From Candidatus Parcubacteria bacterium (GTDB lineage: Bacteria; Patescibacteriota; Minisyncoccia; Phycocordibacterales; UBA918): 64,000 nt of DNA. The position numbers and the translations under genes are program-made. Under the pieces are notes generated by a model. The model was not told the DNA's origin, made no database searches, and saw only the letters and a program-made list of their open reading frames with translations. Positions 13 to 44,100 of the stretch are shown in pieces. The stretch lies in assembly GCA_021731405.1 (NCBI GenBank), contig JAKFXN010000001.1, forward strand, positions 29,857-93,856, written 5' to 3'. Numbering within the stretch: the first letter of the stretch is position 1; the number at the start of each line of letters is the position of its first letter.

Positions 13-40
13 TTAAAAAAGACCTTGCGGTCTTTTTTTG
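13..40. terminator. Hairpin AAGACC-ttgc-GGTCTT with A-run upstream and T-run downstream; intrinsic terminator at the 3' end of rnc (minus), bidirectional in sequence
   Basis: Inverted repeat at 19-34 followed by tttttttg; rnc stop codon (tta, 42-44) is adjacent. Confidence 0.6.
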
Positions 41-41
41 T

Positions 42-755
42 TTAGTCTTCCCAACCCTTATTGGCGATAGCGGCTTGAGCGGCCTGCTGCTCAGCCTCTT
101 GTTTAGAACGACCTTTACCCTCACCGACTTTTTCGTGTCGTAAAAATACTCCAACCGTAAAGATGCGGTCATGGTCTGGGCCGTCTTGTGAAATAGTGTC
201 GTACGTCGGCGTGATAGAAGCTTTCTCTTGAGAAAGTTCTTGGAAGCGACTCTTGGCATCCTGCCAAAGGCGCTTTTTAACAATGTCATCAGTGGCCGCA
301 AAGAGCCTTGCGGCAATAAAATCTCGCGCAGTTTCATATCCTGAGTCGATGTACATCGCACCGATACACGCCTCAAACACGTTAGCTAAAATGTACTGTC
401 GTGCTCGTCCTTCATCCTTAGCCTCTCCTTTTGACATTAAAAGATATTTGTTGACACCAAGTTGCTCAGACACCGCGGCTAGAGAATTGGTATTAACAAG
501 TGCAGCACGAATGGCGGTAAGATCACCTTCTGGTTTTTCTGGGTATTTTTTAAACAAAAAATCAGTCACTACAAGCTCAAGTACGGCGTCTCCTAGAAAC
601 TCAAGACGCTCATTATGTTCCCACGTAGCTTCACGATGCTCGTTTAAATACGAACGGTGCGTAACCGCAGAGAGGAGAATTTGCGGGTCACGAAACTCAA
701 CTGCAATGAGTTTTTGGAGCATAACCAAATCAGCTTCTATGTTTCTTTCAGACAT
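42..755 (-). CDS. rnc: Ribonuclease III
   Basis: 237 aa. RNase III signature ERLEFLGDAVLELVVTDFLF, a C-terminal dsRBD-like region, ATG start and TAA stop. Confidence 0.93.
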   Translation of the reverse strand: MSERNIEADLVMLQKLIAVEFRDPQILLSAVTHRSYLNEHREATWEHNERLEFLGDAVLELVVTDFLFKKYPEKPEGDLTAIRAALVNTNSLAAVSEQLGVNKYLLMSKGEAKDEGRARQYILANVFEACIGAMYIDSGYETARDFIAARLFAATDDIVKKRLWQDAKSRFQELSQEKASITPTYDTISQDGPDHDRIFTVGVFLRHEKVGEGKGRSKQEAEQQAAQAAIANKGWED

Positions 756-785: not shown

Positions 786-1688
786 CTATTTGCTGCGTCT
801 GCCAACCAGCATGGTAATGGCCTTTGTGACAATAGGAAGAATGTCTTCATAAAAATTGAGCTCGAGAATATCAGCTACTCTAAACCACCTTGCGTCGTCC
901 AAACCTCCCTTTTTAGCAAGCACAAGCTCTTGGTATGGAGCCTTAGCTAAGAAGTAGTGCACCTGTTTTCGTACTTTTCCTTTTTCGGGCTGCGTAGCAA
1001 TATATTCATTGTTTCCAAGTTCCGCCTCAATCTCTACAGGAAGTCCTATCTCCTCAAGGAGTGCTCGCATTGCACCTTGTTCTACTGTTTCAGCATCAGC
1101 TACCTTACTCTTAGAGAGAGTCCAGTGTCCAAAGATATCGTGCACGAGCGCAAAGTACATTTGTCCATCTTCTTCTGCATACACAACCGCACCAGAGAGT
1201 CGCTCAATTGGCATCTCATCAAATGGCACTTCTTTTTTGCGTCGTTTGCTGACCTCTTCTTTTCCTGGCTCACCAATTTCTTTATAAACCGCACCAAGTA
1301 CACCGTTTACAAAACGACTACTGTTGTCGCCACCAAATTGCTTTGCGAGTTCAATCGCTTCATTGATTGCCACTTTGGCTGGTACTTCAGAACGTTCCGC
1401 AAAAAGAAGTTCAAAAAGTCCGAGACGAAGGATGTTTCTATCTACTGGTGAAATTCTATCAATTGGCCATTCAGGAGCAGCCTTAGAAATAACCAAGTCG
1501 AGTTCTGTTTGTTTACTTAAAATCCCAGTGAGTAACCGTTCCATAAATGGTCGGTCAGTTTTATTCTGGGCGAATTCTTCAATGTTTCGATCTAGAATTG
1601 AAATAACTTCCTTCTTATCAATTGCATTTAAATCCCACTCAAAGAGGGCCTGAAGAACGATACTGCGTGAAAGGTGCCGATTTGCCAT
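786..1688 (-). CDS. nusB: Transcription antitermination factor NusB fused to a C-terminal Nudix-hydrolase-like domain
   Basis: The N-terminal ~145 aa is a classic NusB (RISPVDRNILRLGLFELLF...AINEAIELAKQFGGDNSSRFVNGVLGAV). The C-terminal ~150 aa has a Nudix fold and a degenerate Nudix box (S-KVADA-E-TVEQGAM-RA-LLEE-IGL) in one continuous ORF. Confidence 0.8.
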   Translation of the reverse strand: MANRHLSRSIVLQALFEWDLNAIDKKEVISILDRNIEEFAQNKTDRPFMERLLTGILSKQTELDLVISKAAPEWPIDRISPVDRNILRLGLFELLFAERSEVPAKVAINEAIELAKQFGGDNSSRFVNGVLGAVYKEIGEPGKEEVSKRRKKEVPFDEMPIERLSGAVVYAEEDGQMYFALVHDIFGHWTLSKSKVADAETVEQGAMRALLEEIGLPVEIEAELGNNEYIATQPEKGKVRKQVHYFLAKAPYQELVLAKKGGLDDARWFRVADILELNFYEDILPIVTKAITMLVGRRSK

Positions 1689-1776: not shown

Positions 1777-1800
1777 TAAAAACCCCAGATGGGGTTTTTA
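1777..1800 (-). terminator. Intrinsic terminator downstream of rpmF (AAAAACCCCAGATGGGGTTTTT)
   Basis: GC-rich 5-bp stem with flanking A- and T-runs between the rpmF stop and the nusB start. Confidence 0.6.
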
Positions 1801-1809
1801 GTAAGTAGT

Positions 1810-2076
1810 TTACTTTGCTTCTTCTACTGGAGAGGCTTCTTGTGCTTGACCGCGGATAGCTTCTCGCTTTGCTTCCATTCGGGCATCACGATCCTTCTTC
1901 TTAGTAAGTAAGTCAATCACTACACGGCCTTTGTAAAAACCACAGTTAAGGCACATGTGGTGTGGACGATGATGTCCGCCACAGTTCTTACACACAGCCA
2001 CTTCTGGCGCTGTAAGAGCGTGGTGAGCTCGTCGGTTGGCGGTGTGAGACCGCGTATGTCGCATTCGAATTACCAT
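1810..2076 (-). CDS. rpmF: 50S ribosomal protein L32 (zinc-ribbon type, with a charged C-terminal extension)
   Basis: N-terminus MVIRMRHTRSHTANRRAHHALTAPEVAVCKNCGGHHRPHHMCLNCGFYKGR is the typical L32 with CxxC...CxxC. The extra ~30 aa are K/E-rich. Confidence 0.85.
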   Translation of the reverse strand: MVIRMRHTRSHTANRRAHHALTAPEVAVCKNCGGHHRPHHMCLNCGFYKGRVVIDLLTKKKDRDARMEAKREAIRGQAQEASPVEEAK

Positions 2077-2159: not shown

Positions 2160-2783
2160 CTACTTTCCTAGTATGTTTCCACAAAAGCTCAGCCGATGCT
2201 CGTCTGAAGGGCCAAATTGCTTGATGGCAACGCGATGTTCAAGAGTCCCATATCCTTTATGTTTAGCAAAATTATAGGCCAAGTAAGGGCTTTTTGAGGC
2301 CAATTTCTCCATATACCTGTCTCGTGTCACTTTAGCCATAATTGAGCCGAGTCCGATCTCGCGCTCACTCAAGTCGCCTTTAATGATAGTTTGCTGACAC
2401 ATATATGTAGCGGGAGCTTTCAATCCCCCATCAAGCTTAATAAAAACGTCAGTCGCAAACTGTATATCCGCATGCCTTTTTTCAAGCCTAGAAAGAGCCC
2501 TGGCTAGCGCTTGTTTAATAGCGATACTAATACCAATAGCATCTATCTTTTTTGCACTTACCATGACCACTTCATAATCCAACACCCCCGCTTTTTGCAG
2601 TGTCCGTGCCGCCAGATAAATGACTTCCCGTTTTTTTGGTGAAAGCGCCTTACTATCGGTTACCCCTGGTAAAAGTTTCCACTTAAAACCTTTTGGTATA
2701 AAAGCTACTCCGACCGCGACTGGTCCAGCGAGCGGTCCTCTGCCTGCTTCGTCTATACCAATAGTATGGGCTGGTTTTTTCAT
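2160..2783 (-). CDS. rnhB: Ribonuclease HII
   Basis: MKKPAHTIGIDEAGRGPLAGPVAVG... carries the RNase HII DEAGRG motif. The start was set at the internal ATG (ending 2783), because the upstream part of the track ORF overlaps dnaE and is not protein-like. Confidence 0.88.
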   Translation of the reverse strand: MKKPAHTIGIDEAGRGPLAGPVAVGVAFIPKGFKWKLLPGVTDSKALSPKKREVIYLAARTLQKAGVLDYEVVMVSAKKIDAIGISIAIKQALARALSRLEKRHADIQFATDVFIKLDGGLKAPATYMCQQTIIKGDLSEREIGLGSIMAKVTRDRYMEKLASKSPYLAYNFAKHKGYGTLEHRVAIKQFGPSDEHRLSFCGNILGK

Positions 2784-2863
2784 AACGTTATTGCAGTATA
2801 CCAAAGCAAGCCTTTTCTGTGTCGTGGTTTGAGGTGCCAGAAGGCGGATGCTATAGTAGTGCC

Positions 2864-5800
2864 ATGTCAGAGTCTGAAACACTTCCGCCGACTTTTGTTC
2901 ACCTCCATGTTCACTCGCACTATTCGCTCTTGAATGCGCTTCCAACCCCAAAAGAGCTAGCTTACGCTGCCAAAGCAGACGGACAGACAGCACTGGCCAT
3001 TACCGACAACGGTGCTCTTTACGGCGCCATTGATTTTTATAAGGCCTGCACCAAAGAAGGTATCAAACCAATTATTGGTATTGACGCTTATTTAGCTCCG
3101 CGCAGTCGACATGACAAAGACGCGCAGATAGACAAACCGCGAGCACGAGTAGTGTTGCTCGCAAAAACATTTAAAGGTTACCAAAACCTCATTCAGCTGG
3201 TGACTCTCTCCAACCTTGAAGGTTTTTACTACAAACCAAGACTTGATGAAGAACTACTGACGAAATATAAAGATGATCTTATCTGTATCATTCCTTCTTT
3301 TGCGGGCGAAGTAGCCAAAGCACTTAAAGATGGCGACGAAGAATATGCGCGCAAAAAACTAACTTGGTACAAAGAAGTTTTTAAAGACGACTGTTACCTC
3401 GAAATCACCCACCATCCAGAAATCCTCGATCATGAAAAAAATCAGGAGCAAATTATAGCGCTTGCACGTGAGACCAACACTGAGCTGGTTGCTGCGCACG
3501 ACGTGTACTATCTCAAGCCCGAGGACCGTACCGCGCGCGAGACTCTGATTAAAATCCAAAATGGTGGAGTGGTTGACCTATCAAACGACATGGGTAGTGA
3601 AGAAGATTTTTCTTTCATTAGCCAAGCGAAAGCGGCCGAGCTATTTAAGGACACACCTGATGCCCTAGCAAACACCCTAAAGATTGCCGAGGCGTGTAAT
3701 GTCTCAATCGAAATCGGGACTCATTGGTACTTCCCTGATTACAAAATTGCCAATAACCGCACAGCAGACGATGAGCTTCAGATCACTGCCTATGCTGGAG
3801 TGCCGTGGCGAAAGCTTGATATTAATGACCCAGTGATTAAGACCCGTCTTGATTACGAACTTGAAGTCATTAAAAACAAAGGGTACTCAAAATACTTCCT
3901 CGTGGTAGGAGACCTCCTTCGTGAATCACGTAAGCGCGGTATTTTGACTACCATTCGAGGGTCAGTGGCGGGTTCACTCACCACCTACGTACTTGGTATT
4001 ACAAACGTAGATCCAATTGAATACAAACTTCCCTTTGAACGTTTCCTTAATCCAGAACGTCCGTCTGCTCCCGACATCGACATGGACTTTGCTGATAATC
4101 GGCGGGATGAAATTATTGAATACGCCAAAGAAAAATACGGCGCCGATAAAGTAGCGCAGATTGGTACGTTTGGAACCATGATGGCACGCGCGGCGGTGCG
4201 TGACGTGGCGCGTGCGCTTGGTCATCCATACTCTACTGGCGACCGTATCGCTAAGCTCATCCCGATGGGTAGCCAGGGTTTCCCGATGACGATTAAAAAG
4301 GCACTTGAGATAGAGCCCGACTTAGCTGAACTCTATAAAAAAGACACGGAGTCACGTGAAGTAATAGATCTCGCAAAACAAATCGAGGGTCGAGTGCGAC
4401 ACCTTGGTGTACATGCGGCTGGTGTCGTAATTGCACCAGAGCCCCTCTCGCAGTTTGTGCCTATTCAACCCGACCCGAAAACAGGAAAGTTCATTACCCA
4501 GTACGAAATGAAGTCGGTAGGTGAAGACGGTGTTGGCCTTTTAAAGTTCGACTTCCTCGGTATCAAAAACCTCGCCATTTTAGCTGACGCGGTAAAGCGA
4601 GTAAAAAAGATTCGCGAGATAGAAGTTGATATTGAAAATATTCCCCTTCAGGACCCGAAGACATTTAATATCCTCGCTCGCGGTGAGACGATGGGACTCT
4701 TCCAGCTCAATGGTTCTGGTATGACTGCCTTCCTCAAGCAGCTGAAGCCTTCAACTATTCACGACATCAATGCGATGGTGGCTCTCTATCGTCCAGGACC
4801 GATGGAATCAATCCCGCAATATATTGAACGTAAACACAATCCTGAACTCGTGTCGTATGTAGACCCACGCCTCAAGCCTATTCTTGAAGTGTCTTATGGT
4901 GTGATTACCTATCAGGACGATGTTATGACTATTGCGCGCGAGCTCGCGGGCTACTCGTGGCTTGAAGCAGACATGCTCCGAAAAGCGATGGGTAAGAAAA
5001 TTCCTGAAGTGATGGCGGCTGAAAAAAATAAACTCCTAACTGGTTTTGTGGAATACGGAAAACTCACCCCAAATATTTCAAATAAACTTTGGAGCCTTAT
5101 TGAACCTTTTGCGGCCTACGGGTTCAACAAAGCGCACGCAGCTTCATATGGTCGAGTGGCCTATCAGACTGCCTATATGAAGGCCAACTTCCCGGTTGAA
5201 TACATGTCAGCGGTTCTCACTGCCGACTCAGGTGATACTGAAAAGATTTCTGAAATTATTCGCGAGTGTGAACGCATGGGGATTGAGGTATTGCCACCAG
5301 ACATCAATGAATCATTTGCTGACTTTTCAGTGGTACCTGGTAAACAAACTATTCGCTTTGGACTCACTACCATCAAAAACTTCGGCGCTGGGGTAGCTGA
5401 TGCCATCATTACTGAGCGAAAGAAAAATGGTTCGTTCACTTCTATCTCTGATTTCCTGTCGCGCGTAAACGATCGCAACCTCAACAAAAAGTCGCTTGAA
5501 GCTCTTATTGTAACGGGAGCGCTTGATAGCTTTAATGAACGAGGCTTACTCTTTGCCAATCTTGAGACTCTTCTCACCTTCAACAAAGAACGTGTGTCAG
5601 AAAAAGAATCAGCCCAAGAATCTCTTTTTAGTTTTGGTGGTACAGTGGCACATGAACTGAATCTCCTACCATTTCCACCGGCCGCTAAACTGCAGAAACT
5701 AATTTGGGAGAAAGAGTTGCTTGGAGTATACGTGTCTGGTCATCCGCTTGATGAATACCAGAGTGAACTTGATAAGCGACCATCTATCCATTCCATTAAA

Positions 5801-6115
5801 CAGGCTGTAGCGGACAAGGAAGAAATCGCCATTCTGCGTATGAAGGGTGACTTGGTTACTGCCGGTATGGTCACCAGCGTTCGCGAGCTCATTACTAAAA
5901 AAGGCGACAAGATGGCTTTTGTTATGCTGGCAGATACCAAAGACGAAATTGAGATGGTAGCATTCCCGCGTACCTACCTCGAACTCAAAGATCTCTTTGT
6001 ACCAGGTACCTGTATTGCTGTTAAGGGCAAACTTTCTATCCGCAACGACGAACCAAGCATTGCTCTTGATAAAGCAAAGCGCTTAGGTGTGCCAGCAAAA
6101 TCTGAAGGGAACTAA
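2864..6115 (+). CDS. dnaE: DNA polymerase III alpha subunit
   Basis: 1084-1098 aa. PHP domain (FVHLHVHSHYSLLNA), polymerase core and OB fold. The ATG at 2864 is preferred over the GTG at 2819. Confidence 0.93.
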   Translation: MSESETLPPTFVHLHVHSHYSLLNALPTPKELAYAAKADGQTALAITDNGALYGAIDFYKACTKEGIKPIIGIDAYLAPRSRHDKDAQIDKPRARVVLLAKTFKGYQNLIQLVTLSNLEGFYYKPRLDEELLTKYKDDLICIIPSFAGEVAKALKDGDEEYARKKLTWYKEVFKDDCYLEITHHPEILDHEKNQEQIIALARETNTELVAAHDVYYLKPEDRTARETLIKIQNGGVVDLSNDMGSEEDFSFISQAKAAELFKDTPDALANTLKIAEACNVSIEIGTHWYFPDYKIANNRTADDELQITAYAGVPWRKLDINDPVIKTRLDYELEVIKNKGYSKYFLVVGDLLRESRKRGILTTIRGSVAGSLTTYVLGITNVDPIEYKLPFERFLNPERPSAPDIDMDFADNRRDEIIEYAKEKYGADKVAQIGTFGTMMARAAVRDVARALGHPYSTGDRIAKLIPMGSQGFPMTIKKALEIEPDLAELYKKDTESREVIDLAKQIEGRVRHLGVHAAGVVIAPEPLSQFVPIQPDPKTGKFITQYEMKSVGEDGVGLLKFDFLGIKNLAILADAVKRVKKIREIEVDIENIPLQDPKTFNILARGETMGLFQLNGSGMTAFLKQLKPSTIHDINAMVALYRPGPMESIPQYIERKHNPELVSYVDPRLKPILEVSYGVITYQDDVMTIARELAGYSWLEADMLRKAMGKKIPEVMAAEKNKLLTGFVEYGKLTPNISNKLWSLIEPFAAYGFNKAHAASYGRVAYQTAYMKANFPVEYMSAVLTADSGDTEKISEIIRECERMGIEVLPPDINESFADFSVVPGKQTIRFGLTTIKNFGAGVADAIITERKKNGSFTSISDFLSRVNDRNLNKKSLEALIVTGALDSFNERGLLFANLETLLTFNKERVSEKESAQESLFSFGGTVAHELNLLPFPPAAKLQKLIWEKELLGVYVSGHPLDEYQSELDKRPSIHSIKQAVADKEEIAILRMKGDLVTAGMVTSVRELITKKGDKMAFVMLADTKDEIEMVAFPRTYLELKDLFVPGTCIAVKGKLSIRNDEPSIALDKAKRLGVPAKSEGN

Positions 6116-8527: not shown

Positions 8528-11500
8528 TTACGCAACCACCTTAATCGCCTTCATGATAGCCATCTTAACTGCTGAAGCCTCGTCATTGTATGCACCATCA
8601 AGTGCGCCAGTGAGAGCTTCGATCATTTTAAGAATTTGCTCATTTGTAAGAGTCGCTGTTTCCTTCATAAGAAGTTCAGAGGCCTTAGCTTCGATACCAC
8701 GACGGATACGGTACACCGCGTCTAGGTCAGCAGCTGCGTCAGCTAGTGCAAACATTGGACGATTACCAATGAGTTCGTACGCAGCAACCACATTACCAGT
8801 TACAATCGCTTCAGCGAGAGAACCAGCACCTTGTGGTACTACAGCCGGAATGTAAGTAGACTCTACTGCCTTTTGTGCATTTACCGCGCAAACAACACAG
8901 AGTTCTTGCATCCGCTTTTCGTTAAGTACTACCCACCCGTCTTCTGCTGGAAACTGTGCCTTGGCAGCTACAATCACTTGATCAAGAGCGATAGTTCGCT
9001 CTGTTGTAGTGTTTGTAGTAGCGATAAAGTGACGAATAGCATCACTTGAAAGTAGTACGTGCTGTGCATGAGCATGATTTTCAATCATGGTCATTTCACT
9101 ATCATTGATTTGATGAGAAGCAACTTCAGTTACCGCCTCGTCTTCAACATGATTTACGTATCCTACCGCTGGCGTACCAGTTGGTAGATTTGTTGGCAAA
9201 GTTGAGATTGGCATTTCTGGTGCCTTTACACTTGCTACAAATACATCTGGTCGAACCTGTTCAGGAATAAAACGTGTACTTGGTTCTACTGCAGTACGTG
9301 CAAACGTAAGTCCGCCTAATGCATCTCGCTTGATTACAAGGAGGTATGCAACATAGAGGGCCCATGCCATAAGTAATGCGTAGAACAAAAGAGTCAAGAT
9401 TGGTCCAGCTTCAAATCCAGTGTACGGCACTTGAGTAAGTGCAATTCCGGCTACAAGCGGCTGGTCACGAACCTCTGTAATAACAATGTTGTCATCCATC
9501 TCAACATCAACTGTACACTTTCGTGTGGTTGAACCACGCTTCACTGTTAGAACATAAGTCGTATCTTCTTCTGGAGAAACGGTAATTTTTCCATCAAGAA
9601 GTCGATCCTTTGCTGCCTTCAAGAGTCCAGAAGTTGTCACGAGTGTTACGTCCTCTGTTTCATCAACAAGAGTAATATCAGTTGCTCGTGTACTTTCCCA
9701 TGTAAGTACTACCTTGTCTCCAGGATTAATTTTATTGTCAGAAATTGAAAGTTCACAACGTGGAGCAGATGAACCACCTCCGCCTCCACCTGTTCGTACT
9801 GTTACCGGTACTGGACAATTGATTGTCTCAGTTCCGTTTGATGCAGTAAGTGTGTAGGTAGTTGAATCAGTTGGAGACACTGTGGTTGAACCACTAAGGC
9901 CAGTAGCAGTGATTCCGTTATCAAACGAAACTGATGTTATGCCTGTTGTTGTCCAAGTAAGTGTTGATTCTCCACCACGTGTGATTGAGTTTGGATTTGC
10001 ACTGAGACTTACGTTTGCCGCACAAGTAAGCGGTGTTTGAACTGGAGGCTCAACCGGTACAGTCACCACACAACTATCTGAACTTGAAGCGTTTGCTGCA
10101 GTTAGGGTAAATGTCTGTGTTGCCGTAATACCGATGGTTGTAGAACCATTAAGTGCTACAGAACCAATAGTTGGAGCGATAGAAACGCCTGTTGCATTAG
10201 TAGTTGTCCAAGCAAGAGTAACGTTTCCACCTCCTACCGGAAGACTTGTTGGCGTAGCTGTTAGAGCTTCACACTTTGGAGCCTTCACATCTGGTTTTTC
10301 TGTAACCGCAATAGTTGCTGTACAAGTATCCTTTTGGTCACCTACGCCATACGCAGTAAGCGTGTATGTTGTAGTTGCAAGTGGAGTAATTGAACGAGTC
10401 CCTGAAGCTGTTGGTGTAACTTCTCCAAAACCTTGGTCAATAACGACTCGTGTTGCATTAGTAGTTGCCCAAGTAAGAGTAGCTGATTCGCCACGCTCAA
10501 TTGAAGTTGGTGATACAGTAAAGGCATCACAACTCGCTACTGGTACATGACAAGCCTTGTGAACTGACGTTTCAACAGTGTTACTGTAAGCCCAAGCGGT
10601 AAAGTTACTTAATTCGTAAGCTGTTGCTTTAGCAGTGTTTTTAATAATAGTGGTTGTATCACAGGCAAGGTTATCTTTAACCTTTCCTTTCCATACGATA
10701 GTACCTTCTTCACCTGGAGTGAGAGTATTTCCGTTCCAGTAAATGATCTTAGTAGCTGGTACATACACAGGAGTATTTCCATACCCAGCATTTAGATTTG
10801 GAGTATGAGTTTCACTGAGGTACGTGATGTTGGCATCATGAATATCAACAATCTTTACTCCACCGCCAGTACAATCTTTTGTACCAGTATTTTTAATCTT
10901 AATAGTATAGGTAAGTTCATCTCCTGGATTGGCTGTGGTTGATGAAACTGATTTTTCTAGAGTTAGCTCACAGTATTTAACTTCTTTTGGTACTACGGTG
11001 ATATTTGAATGACACTTTACTGTGTCTCCATTAGTACCTACAACAGTAAGTTCGTAGTTGGTGTTAGTCGTTAGCTGACCAGTATTTCTAGTTCCGTTAA
11101 GTGCTACTGCACCAAAACTCGAAAGGTTTGCTGTTGCAGCATTTTCAGTAGTCCAAGTTAGGTCTACTGATTCACCACTATTAATAGTTCGTGTTGCTGG
11201 TGCAAGGGTACACTTTGGTGCAAGTACTACTGGTGGTACACAAGTAACAATTACAGTTGGTTTACAACCAGGCTTTCCATCATGAGTTTCTGCAACAAGG
11301 GTGTAGGTAGTATTGGCTTGGATATTAGTATAGGTTCTTGAACCTGTATTACTCACCGTTTCCCCGTTAATCGTTACTTTAGAGTAACCACTAGTTGACC
11401 ATTCAAGAGTGATACTAGATCCCGCTGTAATAGTAGTAGCGGTAGTAGCGTAAAAGTTACAAGTTCTAAATGTATTGGTGTACGAACTTGATTGTGAAGA

Positions 11501-11959
11501 TGATGACCCTGATAGAGCCGGAATTGTAATTCCTGGAACGGTAAATGTAGGACTAGTGAATGTAGGTGTCGTAAACGTCGAATTATCTGAAAGTGACGGC
11601 ACCGTTAAAGCTGGCGTAGTCGCTTCAGGTACAGCGAGTTCCGGTGTCGAAACTGAAGGAACCTCAAGTACTGGTTCAACTACCTCAGGAACCACGATTA
11701 CTGGCTGAGTCAGGGTTGGAGCTGAAAGTGTTGGCGAACCAAAACTCGGCGTCGTCAGACCTGGAACCACAAGCTGGGCCATAGCCATATCTGGCGTAAG
11801 TACCGTGAGCTCGTTGTACGGATCGTAAGAACCGATATTGAGCGCTCCGAGGATAAACACAAAAAGCACCAATGCTGGTGTTATCTTTTTAAGAAAGTTT
11901 GTAACATTCATACTAAAAAATTTATAATTCATAATTTTTGTACTCCTACCTACACCCAT
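8528..11959 (-). CDS. Large membrane-spanning surface protein: N-terminal signal/anchor, Thr/Pro-rich linker, at least 6 Ig-like repeat domains (G-ES-TLTW-TTNAT...C pattern), a DUF11/CARDB-like domain, a VPYTG+TM+KRD segment, then a 290-aa C-terminal domain
   Basis: 1143 aa with repeated ~90-aa modules and a hydrophobic segment ILTLLFYALLMAWALYVAYLLV. Alternative starts are at 11932 and 11911 (MNVTNFLKK... signal-like). Confidence 0.75.
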   Translation of the reverse strand: MGVGRSTKIMNYKFFSMNVTNFLKKITPALVLFVFILGALNIGSYDPYNELTVLTPDMAMAQLVVPGLTTPSFGSPTLSAPTLTQPVIVVPEVVEPVLEVPSVSTPELAVPEATTPALTVPSLSDNSTFTTPTFTSPTFTVPGITIPALSGSSSSQSSSYTNTFRTCNFYATTATTITAGSSITLEWSTSGYSKVTINGETVSNTGSRTYTNIQANTTYTLVAETHDGKPGCKPTVIVTCVPPVVLAPKCTLAPATRTINSGESVDLTWTTENAATANLSSFGAVALNGTRNTGQLTTNTNYELTVVGTNGDTVKCHSNITVVPKEVKYCELTLEKSVSSTTANPGDELTYTIKIKNTGTKDCTGGGVKIVDIHDANITYLSETHTPNLNAGYGNTPVYVPATKIIYWNGNTLTPGEEGTIVWKGKVKDNLACDTTTIIKNTAKATAYELSNFTAWAYSNTVETSVHKACHVPVASCDAFTVSPTSIERGESATLTWATTNATRVVIDQGFGEVTPTASGTRSITPLATTTYTLTAYGVGDQKDTCTATIAVTEKPDVKAPKCEALTATPTSLPVGGGNVTLAWTTTNATGVSIAPTIGSVALNGSTTIGITATQTFTLTAANASSSDSCVVTVPVEPPVQTPLTCAANVSLSANPNSITRGGESTLTWTTTGITSVSFDNGITATGLSGSTTVSPTDSTTYTLTASNGTETINCPVPVTVRTGGGGGGSSAPRCELSISDNKINPGDKVVLTWESTRATDITLVDETEDVTLVTTSGLLKAAKDRLLDGKITVSPEEDTTYVLTVKRGSTTRKCTVDVEMDDNIVITEVRDQPLVAGIALTQVPYTGFEAGPILTLLFYALLMAWALYVAYLLVIKRDALGGLTFARTAVEPSTRFIPEQVRPDVFVASVKAPEMPISTLPTNLPTGTPAVGYVNHVEDEAVTEVASHQINDSEMTMIENHAHAQHVLLSSDAIRHFIATTNTTTERTIALDQVIVAAKAQFPAEDGWVVLNEKRMQELCVVCAVNAQKAVESTYIPAVVPQGAGSLAEAIVTGNVVAAYELIGNRPMFALADAAADLDAVYRIRRGIEAKASELLMKETATLTNEQILKMIEALTGALDGAYNDEASAVKMAIMKAIKVVA

Positions 11960-12129: not shown

Positions 12130-12804
12130 TTAAAATAAAAGGGTCTCAATCAGTTCCGCCTCAACGATATAGCGGTCGTCTGTACTTCCAAAACTATTAC
12201 AGGTAGCAAGAAAAAGACGCTGTGTGTCGCCCGCAATTGGTACTGTCACATCAAGCGCATTCGCTCGATACACTTTGTCGACACGGTACGTAAATCGTCC
12301 TTCTATAGCTTCAATCACAATGGTGTCTCCCCATTTAAGGTTCTGAATACCATTAAAAGCTTGAAAGTTCTTATTTCGAACCGCTGGTAAGTAGCTTGAA
12401 TGACCTAAAATAAAGACTGTTCCGTCTTGTTCAAGTGTAGCTGAATCTGGATGTCGAACCACACCCTCAAGCAAGGAAGCATCAAGATCGGCTACATTTC
12501 GGGAGGTGGGGTTTAACACGGTGATAGTTCTATCAAGCGCTTCAATAGTCATAGTAAGCGGATAGACCGGAGTACTGATTTCTTCTGTCACTGTCAGTGG
12601 CAGGATTTCAGCTGCAGTTACATTTTCAGTAATTTCTTCTTCTACTAACTCTGGTTTTTCAACTTCTCGCACTAGCTCAGGCAAAAAGTCTAGCCACGCC
12701 AAAAGCGCATAACTGGCCAAAAAGACCACAAAAAACGCTACGAGAAAAGCAATTTTGCGTTTCAGCACAGCATCCACAAAATCCGTCCATGAGTGCACTT
12801 CCAT
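12130..12804 (-). CDS. Sortase family transpeptidase (membrane-anchored)
   Basis: N-terminal TM, His motif FILGHSSY, catalytic Cys motif LFLATCNSF (TLxTC-like) and conserved Arg DRYIVEAEL. Confidence 0.8.
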   Translation of the reverse strand: MEVHSWTDFVDAVLKRKIAFLVAFFVVFLASYALLAWLDFLPELVREVEKPELVEEEITENVTAAEILPLTVTEEISTPVYPLTMTIEALDRTITVLNPTSRNVADLDASLLEGVVRHPDSATLEQDGTVFILGHSSYLPAVRNKNFQAFNGIQNLKWGDTIVIEAIEGRFTYRVDKVYRANALDVTVPIAGDTQRLFLATCNSFGSTDDRYIVEAELIETLLF

Positions 12805-38108: not shown

Positions 38109-41100
38109 TTAAATACCTCCACCGCCGCCAGAGCTACCGCCGCCTGCTTGGTGATACACCCTGACCTCAAGAGCATCTAGACGAATGGTATTGGAAGCTG
38201 GTTGCGCCGATACTCGAAGTCGGAAATTAGCTCCGCTAAACTGAGCTGCTGTCCAAGACCGTCCCCAAAGATCACTCGCACCACCCACAAGGTAGACTAC
38301 GTCAGAACCTGCCATAGTTGGAGTAGCTTTAGCAGTAGTGTATGAGTTACCACTATCCCAAGAGAGTGAGACATCAATTGTTCCAGCTGCCGTACTACCA
38401 GAAGCATCGAGCTTCACCGCAATACCTTGAATAGTATTTCCGTCAGGAACATTGAAGTTAAAGCCATTGTATGACTGACGAAGATTGGTTGAAGCGGCAG
38501 TGGCATAGGTACCATCAGACAAGAGGGCGTTTTCTCCATTAGTCCACTCATTATGACTGTCTCCAGTCGCGTTTGGACGAGCGAAGTCTGGGTCAGCAGC
38601 AATATTTTCTCCGTCTTCTTCCTCGCCAGCGCCCACTCCTCCACCAGTCTCACCTCCCTCAACAACACCTGCTCCTGCTGGTGCAGGATCTCCAATACGG
38701 GCAACATTACCTCCTCCACCTCCGCTACTATTCCTAAAATGTTGGGAAGTATTCACCGTCGTTAAAATGACCGGTGCGTAAACCGAGGTGGCCCCAAGAG
38801 CAGTTAACCCGAGTGCTGGAAGACTGAAGACTACCGAGTCTCCAAGCTGGGTCCCAGTAGTGTCAGCAGTGACCAGGTAATTGACTGACGTAGAGGCAAC
38901 AAAGTTTTGACTGAAGGTCACTGCACCATGTTGTCCATTGAAAGTCAGAATTCCGTCTCCATCAAGAAGGAGGTCTCCTCCATCCAAAACTCCATCGCTA
39001 TCATTGTCACGATAGAGATTGAAGTCGGAAAGATTGCTACTATCAAGACCTTGTACCCCACTAAGAGAGACCACCAGGTCAGTCACCGTTATCACTTCAC
39101 TCTGTCCGACCAGATTGAAGGCAAAGAGCGGAACATCATCTTTGTTTTGAGCACTAAACTCATTTTCTACTTGTCCCGCTGCATGATTTGCAATCGTAAC
39201 ACTGCCAGTAATACGGATTGTTTGTGTATCAAGTGCTGCTGGTTCACCGGCTGTATTACCGTCTGTATGAAGCTCAAAAGCGCTCGTAGTGGTAGAGACA
39301 GCGGCAAAAGATCCGGCCGTTATTCCGTTTACAATAAGCGTATCTGAGGCAGCGAAGTTTTCTGTCACGGTAAGCACCAGAGTTGCTCCGGCTTCTTCAT
39401 AAGATGCTGTAGTTGAAACCTTCCCCGCTGCCGTTCCGCCAAAGGTAAGATTGGTCGTACCGGTATTGAAACGGAAGTTTGAAGTAGTGGTCGCAATACT
39501 GATGCGAATATCATTTGCTGTAGTTATAGACGGACTAACACTCTCGGCAATAACCACTGCTCCGAGTGTGGTTGTGGCCTGCCCAACATAGAAGTGATAC
39601 GGGGCGGCAGAATAAAATTCTATTGCTTCTGCTGGCGTAAACGGCCAATTCACATTGTTGCCACTATCAAGACATCCTATATCACAAACCACAGTAGATA
39701 CATTAACGTTGTTTGAATCTTTTACATCTATGTTTGCTAAAGTTGTAGTAGCTGGATTTACATACCAATATTGACCATTTGTGCTTGAACGTAACAAATG
39801 CCTTTCACTTGAACTCGTTCCGGTAAAATTCCATTCTCCTTCAATAGTGGTAAGGGTACCTGCTCCGAAAGTGGTGGTGGCAGTTACTGTCGCATTCTTT
39901 GTCAGGTCAAAAAATGTCGTTGTTCCATTAAGGGCATGTACAGCACCAAGCAGGATAACTTCGCCCCCATTTGCGTCAAAAGCACCGTTATTAGTAAAGT
40001 CTCCGTTTGTGACCGAAAGCGCGCTTGAGGGTGCTGTAACACTCTTTCCCGCAGCCACTGTGAAACTTGTCGTTGAAGCAGTCGCTGTCAAAGTAACTCC
40101 GCCACCTCGACGAAGCACTGCGTCATCATCACCAACATACAAAGTTCCTCTACTGGTATCTATAGTCATCGCCCCAGTAAAGGTGGTGTCGCTTATAGTC
40201 TGGACCAAAGCCCAGTCAGCAGCAGAGTCACAGGCTGTAGATGTCTCACAACGAAACAAAATTTGTCCAGAACCAAAGCCACCAGCGTACAAAAAACCAT
40301 GACCTGAATCAAATTGGAGTGCGGTTATACCACCTAAAGTATCTCCCACATCCGTATCAAGTCCAGTAATGGTAGTAAAATCACCTGAAGCATTACAATC
40401 ACTGGAGAGTGGGCAGCGATAGATAATATCTGAAGATCCACCCCCGCCAGCGTACAAAACTTGATTGGTTGTATCAATTTCTATTGGAGTAAGATAGTCT
40501 ATTCCAGCATTATTGATCACAAATGAGAAGTCGCCATTTGCGTCACAGCTTGAGGATAGGACGCAGCGATAGATAGCACCAGCCCCACCATACCCGACAG
40601 TCACATACATCACATCGTTTACCTCATCAATTACAACATCACCCGAGTATCCAGAAATGGCAAAGCTTGAGAAATCACCTTGGGCATTACAGTCACTGGA
40701 AAGTGGGCAGCGGTAAAAGACGTTGTAATCACCACCGTATAAAACATTATTTTGTGTATCTATACCGAGGGCATAAAAACCATTTCCGTCTGCGTCATAC
40801 ACTTCACTAAAGTCACCCGAAGCATTACAGTCTGAAGACAAGACACAGCGATAAAGAGCACCTGAAGCAGGACTTCCAACACCAACATACAGAGCACCGT
40901 TTACTTCATCTACTACTATTGAGTAGACAATCTGATGTGTCGTATCATACGCCACTGCAAAGTCTCCACTGGCGTCACAGTTTGTGGTGAGGATACAGCG
41001 ATATAAGATTCCGTTGTCTCCCGAACCCGCATACAAGACGTCATTCGTTTCATCAATTGCAAAGACTCGGAACCATACCTGTCCACTTGCGTAAGCAGTA

Positions 41101-44100
41101 GTAAATGTCTCAGTCCCTACTCCAGAAACTTCAAGGTTTGCAAAAGCTGAAGTCCCAGTCATTGTCCCAGAAGCTACTCCTCCCAACGATGTTAAGAATA
41201 CCGTCCCGTTATTGGCATCAAAAGTTCCGCTATTTACATAATTCCCATTTACGATTAATTCCGCTGGTGCCTCGACAGTACCCTGCGTAATGGTTAAATT
41301 ATTCACTTCGGTGCTGGTTCCGAGGAGTAAGCCCGACCCGCCAACAGTAAGATGATTAAGGGCATTTGCCCCAACTAAGTCTCCCGAAAATTCTGGAGAA
41401 AGTTGGAAAGACATAATCTCACAACCAATAGCTGAGCCAGTGACAGATGAACAAGCGGTAAGACTTCCTTCTTTACCGAGGTAGAGATAATTACCACCAA
41501 CACTTAATGCCCCCATTGCAACCACTCCCGTTGCACCGGTAGGAGAACCGTTTGAGTCACGACCCGCGACATAGATAGGGTTTGTAGAAGAAGCGAGGTT
41601 ATAGACTTGCAGTTCACAACCAACGGCTGAATCTGGAATTTGGGAACAGGTCGTAGCATTATCTTCTTTACCAAGAAAGAGATGCTCATTTTTTATCACG
41701 ACTGAATATACTAACCCGGTAAACGTACCAACAGAACCACCGACGTCACGACCGGCACGATAAATAGGGTTCGTACTTGAAGAAATATCGTACACCTGAA
41801 GTTCGCAGTTATATGCTGCGCCTGCAACTTGAGAACAGGCAGAAGAACCTCCAGCGTTGGCAATATATAAATAATTGCCTGACTTGGCCATGCTTAAAAA
41901 TACATTGCCACTACTTCCTCCAGCATCTCCCTCAGCGTCACGACCGGCACGATAAATAGGGTTTGTACTTGAAGAAATATCGTACACCTGAAGCTCGCAA
42001 CCCGCCGCTGAACCTGGTGTCGGAGAACAAGCTGCAGTGTCACCGCCCGTACTGGCATACAGATAATCCCCATTAACAACTAAACTATAGACACTATTTA
42101 CACCCGAACCTGTTGATGACCCAGTACTATCACGTCCCGCCACATAGACCATATTTGTACTTGAAGAGATATCAAACACCATCAGTTCACAGCCGTCTCC
42201 CGCACCTGACGTTTGCCCGCACGAAGCACTGTTGAGTTCCTTCCCTGCATACAAATAATTACCTGACGCCGCTAAACTTAAGAAAAATAGCTGTGAGTTA
42301 CCATTGAGTGCACCATCATGATCTATTGAGGTAAGGAAGACAGGGTTTGTCGGATCAGTAATATCAAAAGACATCAGTTCACAACCCTGAGCGTTGGTCC
42401 CACTTTGGGTACAAGCGGTATTTACCCCTCCCTTACCAACAAACAAAATGTTGTCTTTAATGGTAAATGAAGAAATAAACTCCGCAAAGTTACCGTCCGC
42501 GGATCCGTCCACATCTCGCCCCGCGACGTAAATCATGTTGGTTGGATCAGAAACATCATACACTTGAATCTCACAGCCGATCGCCGAACCAGGAGTTTGT
42601 GAACAAGGAGTAGCCTCCCCAGCAGTACCAATAAATAAATAGTTGCCGTAGGTGATTGATTTATTGATAGTAACTGCGTCGGTACCTGTTGCTGATCCGT
42701 CCATATCCACCGCTCCAGAAAAACCAACAAGTGCTGTATCTGTATATATCTGTCCACCATTATTATCGAAGGTGCCTCCGTTGTGAAAGCTTCCAACAGT
42801 TAAATTTGTTGGCGCAACAAGACTTGAGCCAGCGCTGATGTAAAGATTTGAAGTTGAAGCAGAAGTAGTAGCAATGCTGTACGATGAAGAATTATCAAAA
42901 TCTAATGTAGAAAAGCTACTAGTTGCTGTCAAAATCCCATCAACCACTCCCGACCCAGTCATGTATACCACACCACCATTAGCATTAAATATTCCTCTAT
43001 TGATGAAATCCCCAGAAGCTTGTATAGATGGTGCTGAAACAAATTCTCCCCTGCTAATCAAAAAATCTCCATTAGAAACAAATTCTTCTCCGTTTAAGAA
43101 ATGAAGAATATCCGCATCAGACACAGTGTCGTAAGTAAAGTTAAGCGGATTTATTTGTACCGTAGATGAAGCACCGTACGCAATCACATGCTCATAGTAA
43201 AGCGGTATATTTCGTACCCCTATCCCCGTACTATACCCACTTACGAACGTAGTGGCGTCATTAGCATCACCATCAAGCCATATTACAAAAGGGGTACCGC
43301 TCGTAGCTGAAGAAACGTCTGCATTTGAAAATTCCCAAGCGCCACTACTATTTGTGGTAGTACTAAAAATACTTGGCGTTGAAGTACCGACCCACATCTT
43401 GATAGTTTTTCCCGAACCAGCGGTCGTTACGCCTGCGTCAGTGTACAATGTACCGGCAAAGTACGGAGACGGGGTTTCGCGGATAGCTAAGTGAATAGCC
43501 GCTGCGTCGTCAGTTGTGGCGTAGGTATAACCAACCGATCGTGCGCCTTGGCCAGCGGTAGTTTCCCGACCGAGCATACTAGCCTGCGTAGCAGCGAGCA
43601 CAATACTCTGCAGCGCAGTTGTGTTTGCGCCAGCAGTTAGGGCTGTGTTTCTACCAGTATAGGCTCCTACATACCGCATACTATTAGTACCCAAAGAACC
43701 ATCGTCTACTGACTGTTCACTGTACGCTAGGTTGTTTTGGAGTAATACATATCCGGTTGTTTCTGTATTCCCTGCTGCTTGTACAGAAGCTGCATTTGCG
43801 TACATTACCGTTGCATTATTGGTACGTGTTACCTCAATAGTCTGACTCCCCGTTGGGACACTTGACCCAAGAAAGAATGCGGTCACTCGAGCAGGTTCAG
43901 TGGTAGTGTCGATAGCCTCTGACACTTGCGTCATTGTTACTCCACCATAAGTTACTGAAGTAATGTAGTCTGCATTTGCTATTGTAGTCACAAACACGAG
44001 CACACCTTCAGGTGAGCCGGTATCTCCATGTGTCCAACTAAATGAAGTGGAGGAAGCGTTACCGCTTGTACCAGTATGACTTTCTGAAGAAGTACTGTGG

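Follow-up and report, generated by a model that had tools for sequence, protein, structure and literature searches.

Locus and domain organization

The window (the whole 64,000-nt stretch of DNA that was analysed) carries a nusB gene that continues in frame into a Nudix-fold domain and lies between the genes for ribosomal protein L32 (rpmF) and RNase III (rnc). The features of the locus, all on the minus strand, are as follows.

15..38, minus strand: terminator-like, symmetric hairpin with A-tract, GC-stem and U-tract, just past rnc (fold of -11.7 kcal/mol, z = -6.6)
42..755, minus strand: rnc, RNase III, 30 nt downstream of nusB (Pfam Ribonuclease_3 and dsrm)
786..1688, minus strand: nusB::nudix ORF, 300 aa plus stop (ORF listing; Pfam NusB and NUDIX; the public protein P0001 is 100% identical)
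792..1211, minus strand: Nudix-fold domain of ApnA-hydrolase type, aa 160-299 (Pfam NUDIX, Foldseek, residue mapping, conservation)
903..905, minus strand: codon of G262, where ApnA hydrolases have an additional catalytic Glu (C. elegans E103) that the fusion clade has lost (MAFFT and HMM alignments)
1041..1109, minus strand: degenerate Nudix box, aa 194-216 (regex on the translation; family-wide column drift)
1212..1274, minus strand: flexible charged linker, aa 139-159 (EIGEPGKEEVSKRRKKEVPFD...; low pLDDT, low identity)
1275..1688, minus strand: NusB domain of seven helices, aa 1-138 (TIGR01951, PDB matches, AF2, Foldseek)
1778..1799, minus strand: terminator-like hairpin with A-tract, GC-stem and U-tract, between rpmF and nusB (RNA fold of -13.2 kcal/mol, z = -4.2)
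1810..2076, minus strand: rpmF, ribosomal protein L32, upstream of nusB (Pfam Ribosomal_L32p)
Pocket residues of the Nudix domain: W189, T190, K193, Y229, K241, Y245, W268, Y280, D282

The fusion gene starts with ATG and is read in one frame without interruption through its 300 codons. An earlier, sequence-only reading of this DNA had proposed, without naming the strand, a complete NusB followed, with no intervening stop, by a Nudix fold, and the profile searches agree with it: the single ORF matches Pfam NusB (PF01029) at aa 7-136 with 127.2 bits (cut-off 23.1) and Pfam NUDIX (PF00293) at aa 170-282 with 45.9 bits (cut-off 21.1), so the C-terminal region does not fail to match Nudix profiles. 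Between the two domains the confidence of the AF2 model drops (pLDDT <50 at aa 141-152; pTM of 0.62), and the linker is predicted to be a flexible tether. NusB-only orthologs end in the same GEPGKD/K-rich tail. A fixed interface between the NusB and Nudix domains was also considered and is without support at these pLDDT and pTM values. Among the fusion proteins, mean pairwise identity is 40% in the NusB domain, 32.5% in the Nudix domain and 17% in the linker; the higher identity of the Nudix half relative to the linker, together with its invariant pocket residues, indicates that this half is still under selection.

Contig ends aside, nusB and rnc adjoin each other in almost every one of the 80 loci compared, and the order rnhB-rpmF-nusB-rnc is common to fusion genomes and to sister lineages with NusB only. 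Co-transcription of rnc with the nusB fusion is therefore probable. The hairpin between rpmF and nusB was absent from the output of the consensus terminator scan and was confirmed by RNA folding, and the scan called the hairpin past rnc on the plus strand. A sigma-70 promoter scan upstream of nusB returned no match, and Rfam and tRNA scans found no rRNA operon or leader in the 64,000-nt window.

The N-terminal half is a NusB ortholog

Few single-domain transcription factors are as conserved as NusB. The N-terminal half of the fusion scores 131.8 bits against the NCBIfam equivalog model for nusB (TIGR01951; cut-off 88.35), and its sequence matches to NusB proteins in the PDB reach 3e-21. In the AF2 model, aa 4-138 form seven helices of high pLDDT, and Foldseek superposes them on E. 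coli NusB from the NusB-S10 complex (3imq_A; TM 0.85, rmsd 1.7 A) and on 1eyv (TM 0.80). The residues of alpha7 and the alpha4-alpha5 region that contact BoxA, where F122 stacks on U8 and E81 reads the same base (PMC3177189), also have counterparts. In a phmmer alignment to E. coli NusB, F126 takes the place of Ec/Aa F122 and is invariant (41/41) in alignment A1, and D83, equivalent to E81, is at least 90% conserved there. Profile scores and residue equivalences thus identify this half as a bona fide NusB, predicted to serve as the housekeeping S10/BoxA-binding antitermination factor of the organism. It shares with the canonical proteins of E. coli, Aquifex and Thermotoga the full-length seven-helix fold, the BoxA phenylalanine and acidic residue, and the slot next to rnc. 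Canonical NusB is, however, a single domain of ~130-150 aa, whereas here a charged, disordered tail of ~20 aa, common to other Patescibacteria NusB, leads into a 140-aa Nudix domain.

Distribution of the fusion

The continuous NusB-Nudix fusion is present in 46 species-representative genomes of Patescibacteria and in more than 120 protein clusters. The closest 120 clusters (84-100% identity), drawn from NCBI, JGI, ENA and Logan assemblies, are all 299-324 aa long and carry both Pfam domains. A frameshift or stop between the two halves, which would have spoken against a genuine fusion, was seen in none of dozens of independent assemblies; broken copies occur at two loci, one split into three ORFs (L048) and the other frameshifted (L044). 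Sister lineages carry NusB alone in the rpmF-nusB-rnc slot, and no separate Nudix ORF was found in these NusB-only loci. The architecture had been described from the sequence as not a standard one. This holds for NusB in general, but within a whole Paceibacteria-type clade of Patescibacteria the fusion is the standard form of the protein. Public databases annotate the fusions as "NusB" alone, which hides the second domain. Full-text literature searches gave no description of a NusB-Nudix fusion, in Patescibacteria or otherwise, and a survey of the Nudix clan makes no mention of NusB (PMC5389931).

The C-terminal half has the fold and pocket of ApnA hydrolases

The Nudix half has the alpha/beta/alpha fold of its superfamily in the AF2 model. 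Foldseek returned 535 PDB matches at E<=0.001, and Nudix proteins predominate among the matches listed. The best are the Ap4A hydrolase of Aquifex (3i7u, TM 0.87) and the Ap6A hydrolase Ndx1 (1vc8, 0.86), with Rv2985/MutT1, CT771 (4mpo, 0.73-0.76), the C. elegans enzyme (1ktg, 0.75), human Ap4A hydrolase and the non-catalytic Nudix domain of NrtR also near the top. By sequence, the closest PDB entries are 9cxx, 4ilq, 1vc8, 3i7u and 1kt9. The Nudix half belongs to the branch of ApnA (Ap4A/Ap6A) hydrolases and MutT1. This narrows the substrates that the sequence-only reading had put forward: no enzyme specific for (p)ppGpp or NDP-sugars appears among the closest sequence or fold matches, and the decapping and NAD-cap enzymes NudC, Nudt12 and Dcp2 are present in the fold list but only lower down than the ApnA and MutT1 types.

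We mapped the pocket by sequence alignment, using a profile HMM of the fusions against the human, C. elegans and Thermus sequences and, for some positions, MAFFT. In the profile HMM alignment, Y229 falls on the X-loop tyrosine of ApnA specificity (Hs Y82/Y87, Ce Y76), Y280 on Hs F128/Ce Y121 and D282 on Hs E130. MAFFT pairs K193 with Hs K42/Ce K36, a match to PKG that is visible in the HMM alignment too, and K241 with Ce K83. It also set Ce Tyr76 opposite I230, an assignment that we rejected because the profile HMM puts the human, C. elegans and Thermus tyrosines on Y229. Compared with the asymmetric ApnA hydrolases aq_158 of Aquifex (3i7u), Ndx1 of T. thermophilus (1vc8), the C. elegans enzyme (1ktg), human NUDT2 (3u53), Chlamydia CT771 and mycobacterial MutT1/Rv2985, the window protein retains an HWTxPKG-type motif (here HWTLSKS), the specificity tyrosine, a second aromatic that stacks on adenine (Y280), an acidic side chain for reading adenine N6 (D282) and the lysines that bind phosphate (K193 and K241), with residue roles as described for these enzymes (PMC4734340; PMC5389931). 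These residues are kept across the family. In the species-level set (n = 47; the 46 fusion loci plus the window protein), W189, T190, K193, W268 and Y280 are each present in 47/47 sequences, Y229 in 45/47, and the K241 position is K or R in all 47.

The fused Nudix domains are acidic, with net charges of -4.4 and -6.8 compared with -1.7 for standalone relatives, which disfavours direct binding to the RNA backbone. A generic RNA-backbone-binding domain is not supported, the fused domains being no more basic than the standalone ones.

Drift of the Nudix box and the question of activity

The Nudix box of the window protein (aa 194-216, SKVADAETVEQGAMRALLEEIGL) follows the pattern SX5EX7RALXEEXGL in a regex search of the translation and does not satisfy the canonical GX5EX7REUXEEXGU. 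The first glycine is replaced by serine (S194) and the RE glutamate by alanine (A209), exactly the substitutions for which the box had been called recognisable but degenerate from the sequence; E200, R208, E212, E213 and G215 are retained. In the MAFFT and HMM alignments A209 stands in place of Ce E52, and G262 in place of Ce E103, so that the full catalytic set of ApnA hydrolases is not present, and the fused protein differs in this, as in its fusion to NusB and its drifting box, from the ApnA hydrolases, which stand alone. The retained E213 aligns with Ce E56, which we take to be the most critical catalytic residue. In a mutagenesis study of the C. elegans enzyme (Abdelghany et al., J Biol Chem 2003), kcat reportedly fell ~10^5-fold in E56Q, ~10^3-fold in E52Q and ~30-fold in E103Q.

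Degeneration of the box is family-wide. The canonical box is complete in just 5/39 representatives of clusters and 17/47 sequences at species level, and the RE glutamate is retained in 8/39 and 22/47, with K, V, A, I or S in its place elsewhere. At the E103-equivalent position, 45/47 species fusions have Gly and 12/17 standalone relatives have Glu. Every box position is kept in 16-17 of the 17 standalone relatives, where the box columns rank 1-9 by entropy and the RE-Glu column ranks 9; in the fusions the same column ranks 99th and 76th of 136, more variable than the median. In some fusions that are otherwise well conserved, the box signature is, for example, GLKKSEN, NSETDEG or GTKKQKG. Among the clusters at least 84% identical to the window protein, 118/120 have the S..RA box while E212 and G215 vary further, which suggests that decay of the box is still going on at shallow depth. 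Relative to the standalone proteins, the fusions have gained constraint at T190, Y245 and G262. About a third of the species-level fusions combine a canonical box with absence of the E103-equivalent. One close relative with a canonical box, of L001 type, is 82% identical.

These alignments suggest that the domain would have lost its hydrolase activity entirely or nearly so. The alternative is that it is still a pyrophosphohydrolase, perhaps a slow or altered one, which NusB places on the nascent rRNA leader or which cleaves ApnA locally; it might then remove a 5' triphosphate or an Np4N- or NAD-type cap, as RppH or ApaH do, and so license 5' processing with RNase III. Retention of E213 in 33/39 and 45/47 sequences, and of other box residues (E212 in 43/47 in the near clade), does make residual or altered activity possible, and the fold family acts on ApnA and has the decapping proteins among its more distant matches. 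The 17 canonical boxes fit an active enzyme as well, as do the divergent fusions L053 and L054, in which box and E103-equivalent are both intact and which look like standalone enzymes, and so does the setting of the domain, tethered by the BoxA-binding helix in a gene that adjoins rnc. Further, altered boxes can be catalytic, as in the GDP-mannose mannosyl hydrolases with RLx2AE (PMC5389931). Set against this are the variability of the RE-Glu column, the aberrant signatures in well-conserved proteins, the near-universal glycine at the E103 position and the acidity of the domain, which is unlike a typical RNA-binding surface; human TRPM2, moreover, shows that a domain with box substitutions can lose its activity and still bind its ligand. 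We regard an active enzyme as an unlikely account of the main fusion clade.

A putative nucleotide-binding module tethered to NusB

Since the family appears able to dispense with catalysis while it conserves the adenosine-phosphate pocket, we favour a binding or sensor role over that of a pyrophosphohydrolase. With confidence a little above even, we read the protein as a NusB to which a largely non-catalytic Nudix module is tethered, one that would bind adenine nucleotides and possibly modulate the BoxA/S10 antitermination complex. NusB may have captured a Nudix domain of the ApnA hydrolase branch as an extension of the disordered C-terminal tail that it already possessed, and in the main fusion clade selection would have kept the fold and the adenosine/phosphate pocket rather than hydrolysis. 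Homology of the pocket residues points to an adenine nucleotide polyphosphate as the likely ligand: an Ap4A-type dinucleotide, ATP, or a 5' RNA end bearing Np4N or a triphosphate. The linker of ~20 residues would hold the module beside alpha7, the helix through which NusB binds BoxA, and ligand occupancy could in this way alter the assembly or function of the NusB-S10-BoxA complex in antitermination and rRNA processing. The suggestion of the sequence-only reading that this may be a catalytically altered regulator is plausible in this light, given the drift of the catalytic positions and the conservation of the pocket across the fusions. A more specific proposal, that the domain is a receptor for Ap4A-type alarmones or for Np4N-/triphosphate 5' ends of nascent rRNA and makes NusB a ligand-gated antitermination factor, is doubtful.

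The Nudix domain could instead be a ligand-independent platform for protein-protein contacts or dimerization in the antitermination complex. SuhB offers a precedent, as an enzyme fold that became an architectural subunit needed for the entry of NusB/E into the rrnTAC (PMC6614801), and protein-protein interaction is among the known roles of non-catalytic Nudix domains (PMC5389931). The acidity of the domain and the fusion-specific gains of constraint at T190, Y245 and G262 would also suit a structural role. Yet the most conserved residues (K193, Y229, Y280, D282 and K241) line the adenine/phosphate pocket in solved ApnA hydrolases, which is not expected if an external protein-binding surface is all that matters, and E213, a metal/phosphate ligand, is largely kept, and we consider a purely structural module improbable. 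That the fusion is an artefact or remnant, either two genes joined by misassembly or frameshift, or a Nudix gene that was fused of late and is drifting to a functionless pseudogene, would accord with the two broken copies and the decay of catalytic residues but is effectively refuted by the unbroken frame in independent assemblies, by NusB-only genomes with no adjoining Nudix gene to mis-join, by the conservation of the Nudix half over the linker and by its confident fold in the AF2 model.

The genomes of Patescibacteria/CPR are tiny and encode few classical regulators. A clade-wide, selected fusion of NusB to a nucleotide-binding pseudo-enzyme would suggest an unrecognised regulatory input to rRNA antitermination and processing. 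It has long been asked whether Ap4A-type dinucleotides are signals or by-products and which molecules serve as their receptors, and the NusB-linked domain derived from an ApnA hydrolase is a concrete, purifiable candidate receptor with BoxA/S10 binding and antitermination as the readout. If the alarmone-receptor proposal were true, the making and processing of rRNA in these ultra-small bacteria would be tied directly to ApnA levels, a natural proof that ApnA is a genuine signal to the transcription machinery.

Comparison with known systems

Non-catalytic Nudix domains are typically found within multidomain proteins and bind small molecules (PMC5389931). The NUDT9-H domain of human TRPM2, for example, binds ADPR and is inactive through substitutions in its Nudix box (PMC4974056; PMC6461439). 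The fusion shows the same combination of a degenerate box and a conserved pocket in a multidomain, non-enzyme protein, and resembles TRPM2 NUDT9-H, NrtR and CFIm25/NUDT21 in carrying a Nudix fold on a non-enzymatic effector, with a box glutamate lost and the pocket retained; the likeness is one of functional class and not of homologous family. CFIm25 also works in an RNA-processing complex. However, TRPM2 and NrtR derive from the ADP-ribose pyrophosphatase branch and CFIm25 from a distinct one, whereas the parent of the window domain is an ApnA hydrolase. The partners differ as well, being a channel, a winged-helix DNA-binding domain and RNA-binding partners in the known cases, and NusB, with putative ligand binding, in ours. 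As in TRPM2, which is active in early-branching animals and inactive in vertebrates, the trajectory from enzyme to sensor would run across lineages, and the fusions, from canonical to progressively degraded boxes, may offer an evolutionary series comparable to that of NUDT9-H.

Within rRNA antitermination, SuhB of the E. coli rrnTAC is likewise a recruited accessory with an enzyme fold, and works together with NusB/S10 at the rRNA leader; SuhB is, however, a separate, unfused dimer of inositol-monophosphatase fold that binds NusA-AR2 and RNA and has no homology to Nudix. To our knowledge, RsmB/Sun is the only widely known fusion of an N-terminal NusB fold to an enzyme-fold domain in rRNA biogenesis. 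Its C-terminal domain is a 16S rRNA m5C methyltransferase, whereas the window protein carries a Nudix domain and its NusB half is a true NusB ortholog; RsmB models match this half weakly, with scores far below the RsmB cut-offs.

A NusB-Nudix fusion in Patescibacteria

The gene had been read, from sequence without searches, as a NusB joined in frame to a Nudix domain with a degenerate box. This description held in all but one omission, the strand:

786..1688, minus strand: nusB::nudix, 300 uninterrupted codons with an ATG start

Both Pfam domains scored above their cut-offs, NusB at aa 7-136 (127.2 bits, cut-off 23.1) and NUDIX, the profile to be sought in the C-terminal region, at aa 170-282 (45.9 bits, cut-off 21.1). 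The NCBIfam equivalog model for NusB (TIGR01951) gave 131.8 bits, well above its cut-off (88.35). Among PDB sequences, the N-terminal half matched NusB of Thermotoga, E. coli, Aquifex and Mycobacterium (E down to 3e-21) and the C-terminal half matched Mycobacterium MutT1/Rv2985, Chlamydia CT771, Thermus Ndx1 and the Aquifex Ap4A hydrolase. The Nudix box (aa 194-216, SKVADAETVEQGAMRALLEEIGL) carries exactly the two substitutions described earlier, Ser for the box glycine (S194) and Ala for the 'RE' glutamate (A209).

The NusB-Nudix fusion is neither an artefact nor a one-off. The sequence-only reading had named a frameshift or stop between the two halves as what would overturn it; instead, when one genome was scanned for each species, a continuous NusB+Nudix ORF appeared at 46 loci (38-82% identity), every one of them in a MAG of Patescibacteria (Kaiser-, Nomura-, Zambryski-, Niyogi-, Ryan- and Komeilibacteria and 'Paceibacterota'). 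Further, the best 120 matches in a collection of 5.8 billion proteins (84-100% identical, 299-324 aa) all had both domains and came from independent NCBI, JGI, ENA and Logan assemblies of Parcubacteria, Kaiserbacteria, Nomurabacteria and Paceibacterota. Their S...RA box was identical to that of the window protein in 118 of 120 cases and their names, where any, were merely 'NusB' or, once, 'hypothetical protein'. At E<=1e-10, searching a 50%-identity representative library with the C-terminal domain alone retrieved 167 clusters; full-length fusions made up about 38, and the others were fragments or standalone Nudix proteins of ~140 aa. Two loci of the species-level scan held broken copies, split into three ORFs (L048, 5983-6843) or frameshifted (L044, 5968-6953), which may be pseudogenes or assembly errors.

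The NusB half and its linker

The fused gene is orthologous to the housekeeping nusB. Across 80 loci, with or without the Nudix fusion, the genes keep the order rnhB - rpmF (L32) - nusB - rnc, and the neighbors in the window (RNase III, L32 and RNase HII) match it. Unfused nusB genes, 50-59% identical to the NusB half, occupy the same position in Yanofsky-, Azam-, Moran-, Nealson-, Wildermuth- and Harrisonbacteria; there, rnc directly follows nusB and no Nudix ORF of its own turned up in the flanking sequence. In the NusB-NusE-BoxA structure from Aquifex, F122 stacks on U8 of BoxA and the acidic E81 reads the same base (PMC3177189). By sequence alignment, these residues are F126 and D83 in the window protein. 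When 41 diverse fusions were aligned, F126 was invariant and D83 was conserved in at least 90%. Two strong A-tract/stem/U-tract hairpins flank the genes:

1778-1799: hairpin between rpmF and nusB, -13.2 kcal/mol, z -4.2
15-38: hairpin just past rnc, -11.7 kcal/mol, z -6.6

Because of these hairpins and the spacing of only 30 nt between nusB and rnc, nusB::nudix-rnc looks like a two-gene transcription unit, a status we infer because the promoter scan found no consensus promoter for nusB::nudix. Upstream, the longest rnhB ORF (2160..2993, minus strand; GTG start, 277 aa) overlaps the divergent dnaE ORF (2819..6115, plus strand) by ~175 nt. Pfam, however, matches RNase HII only from an internal Met near position 2750 onward, so this is probably the true start and the overlap an ORF-calling artefact.

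An AlphaFold2 model built with the 41-sequence alignment (mean pLDDT 88.2) placed seven NusB helices at aa 4-138, a disordered segment at aa 141-152 (pLDDT <50) and a Nudix alpha/beta/alpha domain at aa 161-299; its pTM of 0.62 would fit two domains without rigid packing against each other. Across 36 diverse fusions, pairwise identity averaged 40% in NusB, 17% in the linker and 32.5% in Nudix, so that purifying selection acts on the Nudix half only moderately less than on NusB. NusB-only orthologs of sister lineages (L051, L052 and L055-L080) end in the same Y(K/R)E(I/M)GEPGKD motif as the fusion linker, followed by a K-rich (K/E-rich), low-complexity, disordered tail of 15-45 aa. The linker thus predates the fusion, the Nudix domain having been appended to an existing disordered tail. 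E. coli NusB is not known to have such a tail. The tail exits helix alpha7, the BoxA-binding helix of NusB (PMC3177189).

Catalytic drift and a fixed pocket in the Nudix half

Foldseek comparison of the window-protein model with the PDB (TM normalized to the target) gave the following first-ranked matches, listed here by TM:

Aquifex Ap4A hydrolase (3i7u): TM 0.87
Thermus Ap6A hydrolase Ndx1: TM 0.86
C. elegans Ap4A hydrolase: TM 0.75
Non-catalytic Nudix domain of NrtR: TM 0.67-0.69
M. tuberculosis Rv2985, 'Nudix diadenosine polyphosphatase': TM 0.40, the target being larger (294 residues)
Ranked below those: M. smegmatis MutT1, Chlamydia CT771 and human Ap4A hydrolase

These top ranks make the ApnA-hydrolase/MutT1 branch the parent of the fused domain. 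Its standalone relatives (30-37% identity, ~140 aa) have a textbook box.

In ApnA hydrolases, the adenine has a conserved loop-5 Tyr stacked on one side and a further Tyr/Phe on the other, the loop-5 Tyr also helps the His of HW and the Lys of PKG to hold the P1 phosphate, and human E130 forms a hydrogen bond to the adenine amino group (PMC4734340). The loop-5 Tyr is the determinant of ApnA specificity (PMC5389931). The C. elegans, human and Thermus sequences used as references were verified against PDB entries 1kt9, 3u53 and 1vc8, respectively. The fusion profile HMM aligned Y229 with the loop-5 Tyr of all three (human Y82, which is Y87 in 1XSC numbering; C. elegans Y76; Ndx1 Y66), Y280 with human F128/C. 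elegans Y121, D282 with human E130, and G262 with C. elegans E103, the extra catalytic Glu. MAFFT matched K193 to C. elegans K36/human K42 and K241 to C. elegans K83.

Table. Residue conservation in 47 species-level fusions (46 loci plus the window); 39 cluster representatives; 17 standalone relatives
W189, T190, K193, Y280: 47/47 each; 37-39/39; mostly conserved
W268: 47/47; outside this count; mostly conserved
Y229: 45/47 (31/36 in an alignment of diverse fusions, A1); no entry; less conserved, entropy rank 31 of 136
K241 as K or R: 47/47; 35/39; 16/17
Full canonical Nudix box: 17/47; 5/39; each single position 16-17/17 (per position, not as a set)
'RE' glutamate: 22/47 (else K, A, V, S, I); 8/39; 16/17
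E103-equivalent: Gly 45/47; Gly 34, Glu 0; Glu 12/17

Nudix-box conservation in homologs, a check proposed with the original observation, revealed a box that drifts across the fusions while the pocket residues stay fixed. In column entropy, the box ranks 1st-9th of 136 in the standalone relatives; in the fusions, the pocket columns rank 1st-10th and the RE-Glu column 99th (species set) or 76th (representatives) of 136, more variable than the median column. A relative at 82% identity (L001) still has the box signature GEREEEG, and in the window protein's own 120 clusters, with S..RA fixed in 118, further variation affects E212 (to D, N, G or A) and G215 (to S, N, A or T). Decay of the catalytic residues is thus ongoing at shallow depth. 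In the C. elegans Ap4A hydrolase, E52Q, E103Q and E56Q reportedly lowered kcat ~10^3-, ~30- and ~10^5-fold, respectively, with Km unaffected (Abdelghany and colleagues, J Biol Chem 2003). If the first two losses hold, the window protein, with A209 and G262, would be a very poor catalyst.

A putative sensor domain on NusB

The simplest reading of these alignments is an enzyme-to-sensor transition, in which an ApnA hydrolase became fused to the tail of NusB and selection in the main clade would uphold the fold and the adenosine/phosphate pocket but no longer the catalytic helix. We predict a largely non-catalytic adenine-nucleotide/polyphosphate-binding domain tethered beside the BoxA-binding surface of NusB; its ligand could be of ApnA type, ATP or a nucleotide-bearing RNA 5' end, and it probably tunes NusB-S10-BoxA complex formation or rRNA leader handling. 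Given the drifting catalytic residues, the fixed pocket and the precedents of non-catalytic Nudix domains, we lean towards a C-terminal module that binds and is not primarily an enzyme. The earlier notion of a catalytically altered regulator is plausible on this reading, with the specific ligand and the output presumed. The transition would mirror human TRPM2 NUDT9-H, which binds ADPR and is inactive through Nudix-box substitutions that include a lost conserved glutamate (PMC4974056), early-branching TRPM2 channels being active (PMC6461439), and CFIm25/NUDT21, which has an RLx2EI box and functions within an RNA-processing complex (PMC5389931).

A still-active hydrolase delivered by NusB, clearing for example 5'-ppp or Np4N caps from the rRNA leader beside RNase III, is a less probable but credible alternative. 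In its favor, E212 and E213 persist, the canonical box survives in a third of species, and altered boxes may stay catalytic, as in the GDP-mannose mannosyl hydrolases with RLx2AE (PMC5389931). Two divergent fusions (38% identity; L053, 6001-6849, labeled Komeilibacteria, and L054, 6001-6900) keep the whole canonical box and the E103-equivalent Glu, lack Y229 and Y245, and have Nudix halves closer to the standalone enzymes (33-43% identity) than to the main clade. NusB fused to an apparently competent ApnA-type hydrolase thus exists as well, and would represent the basal state or the product of a separate fusion event. Against activity, the box columns are extremely variable, and proteins that are conserved in other respects show signatures like GLKKSEN, NSETDEG and GTKKQKG. 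A scaffold that acts independently of any ligand, as SuhB does in E. coli rrnTAC (PMC6614801), is improbable, the invariant residues being precisely those that line the pocket, and an artefact or decaying remnant can hardly be credited. A generic RNA-binding role was disfavored because the Nudix domain is acidic.

Each of the two domains is familiar by itself, and databases already list the proteins, named, if at all, 'NusB' or 'hypothetical protein'; we found no description of the NusB-Nudix architecture in the searchable literature. We would describe it as a NusB that bears a putative pseudo-enzyme sensor domain. Its importance would rise considerably if the domain were an ApnA receptor gating rRNA antitermination, because dinucleoside-polyphosphate receptors and the status of Ap4A signaling remain open questions.

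Related fusions and other genes in the window

The representative library also contained a 379-aa protein (P0209) in which the same Nudix subfamily, again without the RE glutamate (RK), is fused to Sigma70_r4 and a DnaA C-terminal helix-turn-helix. Here the Nudix type is seen for a second time on a nucleic-acid-binding or transcription module, in an architecture reminiscent of NrtR-type regulators. Another protein of this library (P0203, 577 aa), with ~316 N-terminal aa without a Pfam match, a partial NusB (profile positions 34-131) and then Nudix, may represent an additional fusion or two genes merged in gene calling. Elsewhere in the window, two giant ORFs adjoin on the minus strand (38109..44231, 2040 aa; 44253..53558, 3101 aa), the 2040-aa protein having no Pfam match at E<=0.001. 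A 1143-aa DUF11-repeat protein (8528..11959, minus strand) adjoins a sortase gene (12130..12804, minus strand), which suggests a sortase-anchored surface protein in this Patescibacterium.
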